Below are positions 29,817 to 34,477 of a stretch of 64,000 bases of DNA, one piece after another; the stretch's first letter is position 1; each line of letters opens with the position of its first letter. Both the position numbers and the translations under genes were made by a program. A model generated the notes under the pieces. It made no database searches. It saw only the letters and a list, made by a program, of their open reading frames with translations, and was not told the origin of the DNA. This stretch comes from an uncultured Actinomycetota bacterium (GTDB taxonomy: Bacteria > Actinomycetota > Actinomycetes > Mycobacteriales > SCTD01), in NCBI GenBank assembly GCA_963761655.1, contig CAVXHI010000011.1, positions 412,588 through 476,587 on the forward strand, written 5' to 3'.

Positions 29817-30998
29817 GTGCCCGTGAGCCTGCGTCCCCGCGAGGTGTCGCGGGCCGTCCGCGACGTCCCCGACGCCCGCCTGTCCGGCGGCCCGGACGGG
29901 CTCGTCCTGCGCCGGCCCGGGCGGGAGCCGGAGGTGCTCGTCGCCCCGGGGACTCCCGTCACCGCCCGGTGGGAGGACGTCGACACCCTGCTGACCGCGC
30001 CGCGCGGCCGCCTGGCCCTGCCCGCGGTCGACCTCGGCGGCCGGCTGCTCGTCGTGCCGGCGGGCGGGAGCGCCGTCGCCGTGCACGAGGAGGACTGGAC
30101 CGACGGCGCGCCCTACGCGGTGGACGGTCCCCCCGCCTGGGCCCGCGACCTCGCCCGGGACCTCGGGAGCCGGCTGGGCGGCCCGCCGGCGAGCGGCCCG
30201 GTCCGGCGCGTCCACCCCGACCCCCTCGTCCGGCGGCGGCGCGGGCTGCAGGTGGCCTTCGCCGCGCTCGCCGTCGCACCGCTGACCTGGGGGCAGCTCC
30301 TGCGCCCGGTGCCCGGCGCCTTCGCCGCCCTCGCCCTGCTGGCCCAGCCGCTCGCCCTGCTCGTGCTGGCGGGCGTCGGCCTGCTGTGGCTGCGGGGTGC
30401 CCCCCGCCTCGCGGCGCCGCTCCCGGCCGTCGCGGTCTCGCTGGCCCCGGCCGGCGGGCCGCTGCCCCGCGCCGCCGCCCGGCGGCTGCGCCTCGGCGCC
30501 CGGCCGGGCGAGCTCGTCGTCCGGGACGAGCGCGGCGCCGAGGTCGCACTGCCGACGACGGGCGCGACCTGGTCCAGAGCGCCCGACGAGGTCCGGCTGC
30601 TCGACCCCGACGGCTTCCTGCTGCTGCGCCTGCCGCTACCGGTCTGGGCGCCCGACGACGCCTCCCTCGTCCCCCTGCTGGACCTGCTCGCGGCGTCGGG
30701 CGCCGTCGCGGGGCCTCCCGGGCGGGCGTCCGTGCCCGGCCCCCAGGACCGGGTCGTGCCGTCTCCGCTGCGGCCGCGGGCCGCGGTCCCGGGGATCGCC
30801 GGCGACGCCTGGTACGGCCTCGCCACCGCGCTGTGCGCCGTCGGCGCCGTGGCCGGGCTCACCGTCGTCGACGCGTCCTGGGCCCGGGCCTGGGGTCTCG
30901 CGCAGGCGGTCGCGGTGGCCGCCGTCGCCCTCTGTGCAGCAGTTGCCCACAGGCACCGCACGAGGACCCTCCGTCACGGCATCATGGGCGGCTCCTGA
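29817..30998 (+). CDS. Hypothetical polytopic membrane protein (two soluble segments, each followed by TM helices)
   Basis: 393 aa. TM stretches VAFAALAVAPLTW / AFAALALLAQPLALLVLAGVGLLWL and YGLATALCAVGAVAGLTVV / LAQAVAVAAVALCAAVA. Confidence 0.65.
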   Translation: MPVSLRPREVSRAVRDVPDARLSGGPDGLVLRRPGREPEVLVAPGTPVTARWEDVDTLLTAPRGRLALPAVDLGGRLLVVPAGGSAVAVHEEDWTDGAPYAVDGPPAWARDLARDLGSRLGGPPASGPVRRVHPDPLVRRRRGLQVAFAALAVAPLTWGQLLRPVPGAFAALALLAQPLALLVLAGVGLLWLRGAPRLAAPLPAVAVSLAPAGGPLPRAAARRLRLGARPGELVVRDERGAEVALPTTGATWSRAPDEVRLLDPDGFLLLRLPLPVWAPDDASLVPLLDLLAASGAVAGPPGRASVPGPQDRVVPSPLRPRAAVPGIAGDAWYGLATALCAVGAVAGLTVVDASWARAWGLAQAVAVAAVALCAAVAHRHRTRTLRHGIMGGS

Positions 30999-31012
30999 CG
31001 GAGGAGGGGCTC

Positions 31013-31306
31013 GTGGACGAGTGCTTGAAGGTCGACCTGGACCGGCTGCGCGACACCGCGCGGGGACTCGGCGCGCTGGAGCACGAGCTCAGCTGCGCCG
31101 GCAAGATCGTCGAGGACGCCGTCGACGACGTCGGCTCGCACCACGTCGAGGCCGCCCTGCACGACTTCGTGTCCGACTGGCGCATCCGCCGGGGCCGGCT
31201 CGTGGCGCAGGTCGAGGCCGTCAAGGACATGGCGCAGACGAGCGCGGACACCTTCGCGCAGGTCGACGCCGAGCTGGCGGCGGCCCTGCCCGGCGGCCGG
31301 CGGTGA
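31013..31306 (+). CDS. Small all-helical protein resembling ESX 'type VII secretion target'/EspC-WXG-like proteins
   Basis: 97 aa. GGAGGAGGGG precedes GTG 31013. LKVDLDRLRDTARGLGALEHEL...ALHDFVSDWRIRRGRLVAQVEAVKDMAQTSADTFAQVD. Confidence 0.65.
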   Translation: MDECLKVDLDRLRDTARGLGALEHELSCAGKIVEDAVDDVGSHHVEAALHDFVSDWRIRRGRLVAQVEAVKDMAQTSADTFAQVDAELAAALPGGRR

Positions 31307-33368: not shown

Positions 33369-33955
33369 CCTCGCCCGACCTCGAGCTGGACGTGACCAGC
33401 GACTTCGACAGCGACGTCTGGGTCGCCTGGCGGCGCTCCCACGAGCCCGGCTGGGCGCAGGAGGAGGCCGAGCTCTGCTACAGCGAGATCGAGGACCCGT
33501 ACGACGACGAGCAGGTCGCCGGTCTCGCCGCGCAGCTGCAGGTGCTGGACGACCACCTCACCGCCGACCCGACGGTGGCCACGGCCTTCGCCTACCTGCC
33601 CGCCCCCGCGGCAGGGGTGGCGTTCGACGTGACCGTCGAGCTGCTGGTCCTCGGCGACGGCAGCGACGACGCCCTGGTCCGGCTGGCCACCCGCGGGCGC
33701 GCCGGCCTGACCGAGCCGAACGTCGAGCCCTTCGAGGGCCTGCTCGGCGCCGGGCTCCGGGTGCAGCAGCACGTGCAGCTCGACGACGGCACGGTGTTCG
33801 ACACCCTGGCCTACGTGTGGCACCGGCCCGACCTCGGCACGGACGTCCGGGTCGCGGTGCGCTCGCTCGACCTCGGCGCGCTGCTGGACGCCGAGGACGA
33901 GGTCGAGGAGCTCGCCCGCGGCATCGACGTCGCGGCTGTGGACCCGGACGCCTGA
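33365..33955 (+). CDS. Hypothetical acidic protein (196 aa), possible distant paralogue of the preceding gene
   Basis: GTGA overlap at an identical CCCGTGACCTC junction. Also begins (M)TSP. Very acidic (D/E-rich). Confidence 0.65.
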   Translation: MTSPDLELDVTSDFDSDVWVAWRRSHEPGWAQEEAELCYSEIEDPYDDEQVAGLAAQLQVLDDHLTADPTVATAFAYLPAPAAGVAFDVTVELLVLGDGSDDALVRLATRGRAGLTEPNVEPFEGLLGAGLRVQQHVQLDDGTVFDTLAYVWHRPDLGTDVRVAVRSLDLGALLDAEDEVEELARGIDVAAVDPDA

Positions 33956-33994
33956 CCCGGCAGACGCCGCCGGGCCGCCGCACACTGGACGGCG

Positions 33995-34477
33995 ATGCTG
34001 TCGCCCGCCGCCCTCGCCGACCGGGACGGTCCGGCCTGCTGGCTGTGCGGCAACGACGTCGACCCCCGCGCGCCCCGTGGTGCGCGCGAGGCCGGCAGCG
34101 TCGACCACGTCGTGCCGAAGGCCAAGGGCGGCGGCGACGAGGACACCAACCTGCGGCTCGCCCACCGGGTCTGCAACAGCCGCCGGGGCAGCCGCCTGCC
34201 CGAGCTGGACTGGCCGGCCGACGTCCCCGTGGTCGACCACGCCGAGATCTGGCCCGTGGTGCGGCGGGCGGTCCGGCGTCCGGGCGAGTGGGAGGTGGTC
34301 GGCGTCGTCGTCGGGGACGACGGGCGGCGGCAGGCACAGGACTGGCTGGGCCGGGCGGTGCCGGAGGTGCTCGGCGGGGCGTGGGAGGTGCGGGCGTCCG
34401 AGCTCGGGCCCGGGCTCACCTCGCTGGCCCTGCGCACGACGACGCCCCGCGTCCTGGGGCGGCGCAGGAGGCGCTAG
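33995..34477 (+). CDS. HNH endonuclease with an uncharacterised C-terminal extension
   Basis: CWLCGN...SVDHVVPKAKGGGDEDTNLRLAHRVCNSRRG (HNH/His-Me finger), plus an about 85-aa C-terminal region. Confidence 0.8.
   Translation: MLSPAALADRDGPACWLCGNDVDPRAPRGAREAGSVDHVVPKAKGGGDEDTNLRLAHRVCNSRRGSRLPELDWPADVPVVDHAEIWPVVRRAVRRPGEWEVVGVVVGDDGRRQAQDWLGRAVPEVLGGAWEVRASELGPGLTSLALRTTTPRVLGRRRRR

Follow-up and report, generated by a model that had tools for sequence, protein, structure and literature searches.

A block of six genes, g1 to g6, was analyzed in a 64-kb stretch of DNA from an uncultured actinobacterium (contig CAVXHI010000011.1, positions 412,588 to 476,587), hereafter called the window, in which positions are counted from the first letter. 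As set out below, four of these genes, g2 to g5, probably form an orphan effector module of an Esx/type VII secretion system (T7SS). The genes are named in their order along the plus strand, on which all of them and all features described for them lie. The open reading frames (ORFs), the GTGA overlaps and the gaps of 14 and 39 nt that an earlier note had read from this DNA are all present where that note placed them. The GC content of the window is about 76%, and the GC content of the six genes at the third (GC3, 0.957–0.98) and second (GC2, 0.43–0.61) codon position is the signature of real genes. All six proteins are already called in public collections, with the same start codons, and none of them is named. 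At the g1/g2 junction the TGA stop codon is followed by a 14-nt gap containing a strong Shine-Dalgarno sequence for g2 (GGAGGAGGGG, 31000–31009) and then by a GTG start codon. GTGA overlaps couple g2 to g3 (31303), g3 to g4 (32733) and g4 to g5 (33365), and a gap of 39 nt separates g5 from the ATG of g6.

The product of g3 (477 aa) falls into three parts. Its N-domain (residues 1–191, 31303–31875) carries the DWSPLAGSDPVPGD motif and was identified from family matches and from an AlphaFold2 (AF2) model as an elongated three-helix bundle. The model, built with 86 family sequences, has a mean pLDDT (predicted local distance difference test) of 80.4; residues 1–190 score above 90 and form helices at 20–53, 57–119 and 133–191. 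The first turn, at residues 54–56, holds Trp54, which is part of a WxG-like motif where helix 1 turns into helix 2 (W54-H-A-D-S-G59, 31462–31479). Among 12 aligned relatives W54 never varies and the conservation of G59 is at least 90%; the motif is W-x4-G rather than W-x-G. The N-domain is followed by a conserved hydrophobic block with three transmembrane (TM) helices (residues ~198–300, 31894–32202). The three TM helices had been proposed in the earlier note, and hydropathy (hydrophobic helices at about 213–294) and AF2 (helices 198–233, 239–265 and 271–338, pLDDT 83–91) agree on them. The block holds a conserved polar motif, H260..LA.TG.GSW.DV.LD, and a single match to (G/A/S)xxxGxxxG (A282–G290). 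The C-terminal tail (residues 301–477, 32203–32736 including the stop codon) is variable, Arg/Ala-rich and predicted to be helical with moderate to low pLDDT. No Pfam match was found in it, in keeping with the earlier description of a tail without a recognisable toxin fold.

A word-indexed protein search returned few relatives (three hits for g3, of which two were relatives, one for g4 and three for g5), and the g3 family emerged only by exhaustive profile search. With g3 as the query, this search recovered 2456 representative clusters at 50% identity, 381 of them at E ≤ 1e-30, nearly all of 420–520 aa and matching over the full length. The three parts of the protein are conserved to very different degrees among family representatives: the N-domain (1–200) in 150 of 151, the hydrophobic block (201–300) in 144 of 151 and the tail (301–477) in 25 of 151. 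The hydrophobic block starts near residue 205 in 151/152 representatives. In long relatives (1410–1539 aa), the same N-domain and hydrophobic block are followed by DUF6531, RHS repeats, an RHS core and a C-terminal toxin. RHS-type loci are among the best matches to the window, with 36–41% identity over g3 residues 3–290 and 35–38% for g4. Thus, the g3 family displays the pattern of polymorphic effectors, a conserved N-terminal delivery region with variable C-terminal payloads.

Direct matches of the window g3 to known families are sub-threshold. The protein matched PF06013 WXG100 with E = 1.3e-3 (19.4 bits, cut-off 27.3) and TIGR03930 with E = 3e-4, and it gave no match to PF21725 T7SS_signal at E ≤ 1 (curated cut-off 27 bits). 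When 60 homologues were scanned singly at E ≤ 0.01, PF21725 was matched by 32 (best E = 1.4e-11) and WXG100 by 13, and an RHS-bearing relative scored 40.6 bits against PF21725. Membership of g3 in the T7SS_signal family is therefore by transitive homology only, the window copy being too divergent to score. The earlier note had read the DWSPLAGSDPVPGD N-terminus as a T7SS-signal pattern, which is right at the level of the family. It had also made its reading depend on profile similarity to T7SS or EspC families; relatives do match T7SS_signal, WXG100 and EspC, and the window g3 itself does so at best below threshold. No match to LXG (PF04740), DUF3130, DUF3958, DUF5344 or DUF5082 was seen in Pfam scans of g2, g3 and their relatives.

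Related loci were compared to place these proteins in their genomic context. The comparison covered 110 loci; 40 came from species-representative genomes (Streptomyces, Pseudonocardiaceae, Blastococcus, Nocardioides, Actinotalea, Georgenia, Microbacterium, Propionicimonas and others) and 66 from metagenomes, and five short contigs were obtained by exact-protein look-up. Genes were called by GC3 and clustered, and all loci were re-scored with hidden Markov models from the first set, so that the metagenome loci serve as an independent test. Co-localisation of g2, g3 and g4, often with g5, is conserved in Streptomyces, Pseudonocardiaceae, Blastococcus, Georgenia, Nocardioides and other lineages. 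Conservation of the neighbourhood, which the earlier note had proposed to check, thus extends across many actinobacterial lineages for g2 to g5; it does not include g1 or the HNH gene g6.

Directly upstream of g3-like genes and on the same strand lies a g2-like gene of ~100 aa (42/48 in the genome set, 52/62 in the independent metagenome set), and the junction is often the same 4-nt overlap as in the window. In the window, g2 (31013–31306) encodes a 97-aa acidic, all-helical protein with weak matches to EspC (E = 0.019) and DUF6507 (E = 0.022). At 15.8 bits against PF10824 EspC, under the gathering score of 23.5 bits, it is not a member of that family by the curated threshold. Weak matches recur among 38 relatives, to EspC in 12, to DUF6317 in eight and to WXG100 in three. 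Nearly all g2-like proteins carry [Y/F]xxxD..L near the C-terminus, FAQVD in the window (residues 81–85, 31253–31267) and YIEVD in the more distant locus L002. Asp85 is at least 90% conserved in the 38-sequence alignment. YxxxD/E and FxxxD are the T7SS signal described for EsxB and Lap proteins (PMC12744356), and a search for such an export motif on the substrate or its partner found it in F81-A-Q-V-D85 of g2. The earlier assignment of g2 as EspC-like agrees with the weak EspC, DUF6317 and WXG100 matches and the conserved [Y/F]xxxD. By these sequence features g2 is a divergent helical protein of EsxAB-clan type (EspC/DUF6317/WXG100-like), predicted to act as a co-secretion or targeting factor for g3.

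The two genes downstream of g3 encode acidic soluble proteins, g4 (32733–33368) one of 211 aa with an isoelectric point (pI) of 4.5 and g5 (33365–33955) a very acidic one of 196 aa with a pI of 4.05. In hhalign comparisons with c5 and c6, two protein clusters of the related loci, g4 and g5 each matched c5 at 97.9%, c5 matched c6 at 98.5% and g4 matched c6 at 95.8%; g4 and g5 matched one another at 76% (E = 2.3e-5). By profile comparison, g4, g5, c5 and c6 are one superfamily of ~200-aa acidic proteins in which g4 and g5 are remote paralogues. None of 71 members scanned (44 + 27) matched a Pfam family, DUF5085 and DUF1795 included. When profiles of the g4 and g5 families were searched against PDB sequences, no match was significant; the top one for g4, to the PsbP-like protein 2lnj, was weak (E = 0.18) and comprised two collinear segments, one N-terminal and one C-terminal. 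The g5 protein and its L002 counterpart are 32% identical in BLASTP (E = 2e-7). Genes of the g4 family were found in 38 of 44 first-set loci. A superfamily member lies at most five genes downstream of g3-like genes in 44/48 cases of the genome set and 21/35 of the metagenome set, and at least two members are nearby in 32/48 and 19/35, respectively. An ordered g4–g5 pair occurs after both short g3-like and RHS-bearing proteins.

Many of the related loci also encode secretion components. An EccC-like ATPase of 1450–1550 aa with FtsK_SpoIIIE, FHA and ubiquitin-like domains was found in 18/35 genome and 8/11 metagenome loci of at least 10 kb, often with a canonical WXG100 gene (PF06013, E = 7.7e-20) beside it. 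FHA-fused EccC proteins in Actinomycetes have recently been described (PMC13622651). The window, L002 and L040 hold orphan copies far from any eccC gene. Several loci (L009, L029, L024) have two or more paralogous modules, as effectors typically do.

Some of these loci merit a separate description. In L009, L029 and L024/L070 (Streptomyces, Mycobacteriales), two or three complete g2–g3–g4-type modules are accompanied by strings of g4-family paralogues, an arrangement resembling effector and immunity arrays. In Blastococcus haudaquaticus (L018, 3-9064), and likewise in L023 and L026, the EccC-like ATPase bears N-terminal ubiquitin-like and FHA domains and is preceded by a Ser/Thr protein kinase and a Peripla_BP_6 protein. 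This type of EccC agrees with a recent description of EsrG, an FHA output protein, as fused to EccC and of a linkage between Esr and Esx (PMC13622651). In Microbacterium sp. RU33B (L035, 1-4708), a TgpA-like transglutaminase membrane protein (817 aa), a DUF5684 and FHA protein (555 aa) and a 197-aa protein are encoded upstream of the EccC-like gene; they may represent a further set of signalling proteins associated with the secretion ATPase. The canonical WXG100 protein of L005 (8948-9244), L018 (13383-13679) and about 20 other loci (98 aa, MANVNVTY...) has GYVTD in place of WXG and ends in an FxxxD-type motif (AFQQTDQQL).

Taken together, we read g2–g5 (31013–33955) as an orphan Esx/T7SS effector module whose export is predicted, and we give this reading roughly two chances in three. 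The gene set as such is real and very widespread, and the window copy is an orphan member of it. Several points weigh against the reading. The window g2 and g3 both fall under every curated Pfam and NCBIfam threshold, and neither ecc nor esx genes are present in the 64-kb window; as the earlier note had stated for eccB/C/D and mycP, no FtsK/SpoIIIE, EccB/D-like or subtilase genes occur among its large ORFs. A Foldseek search of the g3 model against the PDB gave only generic long helical (BAR-like) bundles, none at E ≤ 1e-3, and the best T7SS-related match, PPE4 of the PE5–PPE4–EspG3 complex, ranked 47th; the modelled fold would suit a T7SS substrate without proving a relationship. For g4, the single-sequence AF2 model reached a pLDDT of 47, and its Foldseek matches (DNA polymerases, ICL2) are meaningless. 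A glycine zipper of the EsxX/TelE type was considered for the g3 family and rejected, the pattern being found in 56/152 members (37%) against 50% of composition-matched shuffles. Furthermore, the N-domain and TM block of g3 never occur apart in the data, so that g4/g5 might bind the one or the other.

The position of g4, directly downstream of g3 with a 4-nt overlap, is the usual one for an immunity gene, and the classical interpretation would be that the g3 tail is a toxin with g4 and/or g5 as its cognate immunity proteins. Such an arrangement would also fit the type of downstream gene (g4, c5, c6 or c12), which varies between lineages along with g3, and the strings of g4-family paralogues, which look like immunity arrays in several loci. 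However, the downstream types all belong to one superfamily, though the g3 tails are unrelated in 126 of 151 representatives. In RHS-type loci, where the payload is a different one, a DUF7878 immunity-like gene follows the RHS gene and the ordered g4–g5 pair comes after it. Because these loci keep the pair in spite of having their own DUF7878 gene, g4 and g5 appear to travel with the N-domain and TM block and not with the payload. This argues against immunity to the tail, which we regard as unlikely, and favours a role in export or handling of the hydrophobic block. Whether g4 and g5 do act on that block we put at slightly short of an even chance. In that role, g4 would bind the hydrophobic block of g3 in the cytoplasm, as a chaperone or a self-protection factor, with g5 as its predicted partner.

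The frequent neighbourhood of EccC raises a second alternative, in which the g3-like proteins, the g4 family and the g1-like membrane proteins of cluster c35 (described below) would not be substrates but structural or regulatory membrane parts of a non-canonical T7SS built around the FHA-bearing EccC, the window copy being stray or paralogous. Strong conservation of the TM block with its polar motif would suit a machine component, as would the location of modules directly beside the EccC-like gene in many loci. In addition, EccB, EccD and MycP went unrecognised in the annotated flanks, although these are a minority of the flanking genes and absence is therefore not established. Against this stand the multiple paralogous copies in several loci, the polymorphic C-termini, including RHS-toxin fusions followed by immunity-like genes, the substrate-type [Y/F]xxxD on the partner, and the orphan copies far from eccC. 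We consider a structural role improbable.

It is also conceivable that the T7SS likeness is coiled-coil noise and that g3 has an ordinary housekeeping function, as a membrane protein whose cytoplasmic domain is helical. All direct matches of the window proteins are sub-threshold, the Foldseek hits are BAR-like bundles, and spurious coiled-coil matches do occur (JetC, DUF745). Noise would hardly produce family matches to T7SS_signal down to E = 1.4e-11, nor repeated linkage to EccC-like ATPase and WXG100 genes and fusions to RHS toxins, and a housekeeping gene would not be expected to differ in presence and position between close relatives as this module does. We therefore give this explanation very little weight. 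A reading of the locus as anti-phage defence was dropped, PADLOC having given only a coiled-coil JetC artefact on g3.

The sixth gene, g6 (33995–34477), encodes a 160-aa HNH endonuclease, as the earlier note had it. Its match to PF01844 (E = 1.5e-8; 35.1 bits, cut-off 21.4) is the only one in the cassette above a curated threshold. No g6 homologue was found in any of the 110 related module loci. In L044, a close relative at 79–86% nucleotide identity, a 222-aa gene corresponding to window positions 29063–29731 is followed after 49 nt by an HNH gene and then by a DUF808 and a SIS gene, and g1 to g5 are absent. The L044 HNH protein is 92% identical to g6 in amino acid sequence over the best segment. 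Since the HNH gene there directly follows the 222-aa gene, it belongs to the backbone, and g1–g5 are an insertion or deletion (indel) of ~4.3 kb. In L045 (~80% nucleotide identity) g4 and g5 are present, and g5 overlaps by GTGA a homologue of a DUF4442 (thioesterase-like) gene (L045, 1049-1220) that in the window (27976-28419) lies 1.4 kb upstream of the cassette; given this coupling, the module occupies a different slot of the same backbone region in L045. In the more distant L002, the g2–g5 core comes after a gene whose C-terminal fragment resembles pyruvate kinase (by reading only), and a different gene follows the core. By these comparisons, g2–g5 are the conserved core of a module that is mobile with respect to the backbone, and g6 is a backbone neighbour outside it.

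A single system of six genes, with the HNH protein as effector or toxin and the acidic proteins as its immunity proteins or chaperones, is hardly tenable: the shared strand, the gap of only 39 nt between g5 and g6 and the lack of a terminator-like site found between them speak for it, against an HNH homologue in 0/110 related loci, the L044 HNH gene without g1–g5, the DUF4442 gene in place of HNH after g5 in L045, and no match to a PADLOC defence model. The six-gene unit of the earlier note is thus not supported, nor is its suggestion that the acidic proteins provide immunity to an HNH toxin; the T7SS link, the EspC-like partner and the co-localisation that it proposed stand.

The slot downstream of the HNH gene is variable as well. 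A DUF808 gene occupies it in L044 (1746-2699, plus strand), whereas the window has a convergent cation-efflux gene (34474-35394), whose stop codon (34474–34476) overlaps that of g6 (34475–34477).

At the other end of the block, g1 (29817–30998) encodes a 393-aa basic polytopic membrane protein (pI 11.2, GC3 0.957). Its TM segments are a hairpin (~164–196) and, towards the C-terminus, two helices (~332–379). The protein gave no Pfam or NCBIfam match, and no sequence homologue was found in the 110 related loci by tblastn, phmmer or jackhmmer or in a metagenome scan. Some modules hold a membrane protein of 393–472 aa, the c35 family, between the g3-like and acidic-protein genes (Blastococcus L018, L023 and L026; soil loci L053, L056 and L062). 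Its topology is that of g1, in that a soluble N-terminal part is followed by a TM hairpin (~160–220) and then by TM helices near the C-terminus. With this family, represented by proteins of 427–472 aa encoded between g3-like and c5 genes, hhalign aligned g1 over 258 collinear columns (probability 75%, E = 2.5e-5). Relative to L044, g1 lies inside the same indel as g2–g5. This shared indel and the promoter-like site before g1 tie the gene to the module in this lineage. We put it at about even odds that g1 is an optional membrane partner of the module.

Upstream of g1, after the 222-aa gene, an inverted repeat and a minimum free energy (MFE) fold define a GC-rich hairpin (29751–29798). The earlier note had described 10 bp at 29760-29791; the hairpin is real and larger, with 14-nt core arms (29760–29773 and 29778–29791, 93% complementary) and, in the MFE fold, a stem extended to about 29751–29798 (-57.8 kcal/mol, z = -3.5 against shuffles). 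It is probably a terminator of the 222-aa gene that lacks a T-tract and would insulate the cassette. The sequence TAGGGT (29804–29809) is a candidate -10 hexamer of the TANNNT type; 7 nt separate its end from the GTG of g1, and no Shine-Dalgarno sequence precedes g1. TANNNT -10 hexamers and leaderless starts are established for actinobacterial promoters. The position of TAGGGT is unlikely to be due to chance, because TANNNT occurs only 10 times on the plus strand of the whole window. A leaderless g1 transcript from the TAGGGT promoter, as read in the earlier note, is thus plausible by analogy with such promoters. Consensus scans for sigma-70 promoters and intrinsic terminators between 28 and 36 kb gave nothing, which is expected at 76% GC in an actinobacterium and hence uninformative. 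In this lineage the module probably also includes g1 and is transcribed from the leaderless promoter in front of it.

The flanks of the block are a conserved backbone. Pfam identified AdoHcyase (twice), DUF4442, CsbD-like, cation efflux, SIS/PGI, Trm112, DUF222 and PMM genes, confirming the sahH, SIS isomerase and pmmA genes named earlier. The two S-adenosylhomocysteine hydrolase genes lie ~1 kb apart on the minus strand. One is canonical (24275-25753, 492 aa, PF05221 E = 2e-147) and the other a divergent shorter paralogue (26702-27952, 416 aa, E = 4e-50), with small genes at 25750–26139 and 26197–26715 between them. Directly upstream of the cassette, two Ala/Glu-rich coiled-coil-like genes (28416-29731, plus strand) encode a CsbD-like protein (205 aa, E = 8e-9) and the 222-aa protein, which has no Pfam match; both are conserved in L044. 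Between the Trm112 and phosphomannomutase genes lies a gene for a 460-aa DUF222 protein (36939-38321, plus strand, E = 5e-30). From reading the translation only, its C-terminus looks HNH-like, which would make it a second gene of HNH type in this variable part of the backbone; it is not linked to the cassette. Further downstream, a tight same-strand block of three genes (41355-49290, minus strand) encodes a DUF5719 protein (499 aa), a family-2 glycosyltransferase (958 aa) and an apolipoprotein-like helical-repeat protein (1010 aa).

For the orphan effector module, the following course of events may be proposed. The g2 protein, a ~100-aa helical hairpin of EsxAB-clan type, would pair with the three-helix N-domain of g3 to form a rod. 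The complex would present a bipartite export signal, composed of the [Y/F]xxxD of g2 and the Trp54 turn of g3, both of which are conserved as motifs, and this signal would target it to an EccC ATPase encoded elsewhere in the genome. In g3 the hydrophobic block comes directly after the targeting domain and before the variable payload. Once exported, the block may insert into a membrane, being either active itself or a translocation device for the payload. In relatives this payload is an RHS-encased toxin, whereas g3 has the helical Arg/Ala-rich tail in its place. In the cytoplasm of the producer, the soluble g4/g5 pair would bind the hydrophobic block and keep g3 soluble and harmless until export. 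A role of g1 as a membrane-level partner or immunity factor is a more tentative addition.

Very few Esx/T7SS effectors are characterised from Actinobacteria other than mycobacteria, and what the system does in most soil-dwelling and commensal actinobacteria is still under investigation (PMC13622651). The g3 family links an export domain, a conserved and putatively membrane-inserting block and interchangeable payloads, RHS toxins among them. If g4 and g5 handle the hydrophobic block, this would explain how hydrophobic effectors stay soluble and harmless before Esx export, and g4/g5 would be a genomic marker for finding such effectors. For the window itself, removal of the HNH nuclease leaves a probable orphan effector module where there had seemed to be a six-gene system of unrecognised kind.

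The concept of a T7SS substrate with a small WXG100-like partner is established in Bacillota and noted in Actinomycetales. Lap-like genes lie beside T7SS substrates in general, including those of new T7SS subtypes (PMC11217815), and orphan Esx substrates have been reported beside small WXG100-like genes in Actinomycetales (PMC13622651). The earlier note had held the system to be undescribed. This does not hold for the logic of the arrangement, known for Bacillota T7SSb (PMC12744356), or for the N-domain, which is in Pfam; it may hold for the TM block, the g4/g5 superfamily and their association. In the literature searched no description was found of a conserved TM block in this actinobacterial family, of the g4/g5 superfamily or of the association between them, and no paper was found on PF21725, DUF6317 or DUF6507.

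The closest parallel in logic is the LapX3/LapX4–EsxX–ExiAB(–ExiCD) module of the T7SSb of Staphylococcus aureus ST398 (Alcock et al. 2025, PMC12744356). There, LapX3 (FxxxD) and LapX4 bind EsxX at its LXG domain, ExiAB, a soluble heterodimer of paralogues, sequesters the hydrophobic motif of EsxX before secretion, and the polytopic ExiCD protect against toxin arriving from outside (PMC12744356). Both modules have a small helical partner of the [Y/F]xxxD type encoded directly upstream and an effector in which an elongated helical N-terminal targeting domain is followed by a hydrophobic region, membrane-active in the case of EsxX. Both also have two soluble paralogues directly downstream, which form a heterodimer in S. 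aureus, and optional polytopic membrane proteins. The likeness is in logic only, as there is no sequence homology to the window (no LXG, DUF5344, DUF5082 or DUF5085). The host of the window is an actinobacterium, of a T7SSa-type phylum, and a single small partner is present instead of two. Furthermore, the hydrophobic block of g3 has a central position in the protein, with the payload C-terminal to it; this block is conserved across the family and shows no enriched glycine zipper.

Among Actinobacteria, a parallel is offered by the Esx substrates of Actinomycetales (AesA/AesB, along with orphan candidates from Schaalia; Wang et al. 2026 preprint, PMC13622651), where candidate substrates encoded outside the esx cluster each have a small helical WXG100-like gene beside them. 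Their motifs are variants (FXG / proximal Asp) of the canonical WXG and YxxxD/E, and their EccC is fused to an FHA output domain, as in the loci related to the present module. Compared by description, AesB differs from g3 in having a Gly-rich disordered C-terminus and no TM block, and no g4/g5-like helpers are described. With mycobacterial EspC and other small proteins of the EsxAB clan, g2 has in common its size of ~100 aa, the predicted all-helical fold, the acidic character and the C-terminal [Y/F]xxxD; unlike EspC, it has no ESX-1 context, and its partner is a large membrane protein and not another 100-aa protein. Proteins of PF21725, the 'Putative T7SS secretion signal domain', share with g3 the N-terminal DW.PL...DP.PGD motif and helical domain, also in RHS-toxin relatives, but the entry covers the N-domain only and leaves out the TM block, the g2 partner and the g4/g5 family. 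The prePAAR effectors of the type VI secretion system (T6SS), Rhs toxins among them, have TM helices and depend in the producer on soluble binders of their own, the Eag (DUF1795) proteins. These Eag/DUF1795 chaperones belong to the PsbP/Mog1-like fold class. The present module resembles them in logic only, in combining TM-bearing effectors with proposed dedicated soluble binders (g4/g5), the only hint of a shared fold being the weak match of the g4 profile to PsbP-like 2lnj; the secretion system is a different one, and the g4/g5 superfamily has no DUF1795 match. On balance we hold the following broader view only tentatively, and rather doubt it than not: the T7SS_signal N-domain, the TM block and the paired g4 and g5 proteins, optionally joined by a g1/c35-type protein, may constitute a dedicated actinobacterial pathway that exports membrane-inserting effectors, RHS toxins included, via Esx. 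The g4/g5 superfamily would then comprise previously unrecognised TM-domain chaperones or cytoplasmic self-protection factors, and the whole would be a T7SSa counterpart of Eag/prePAAR and ExiAB.

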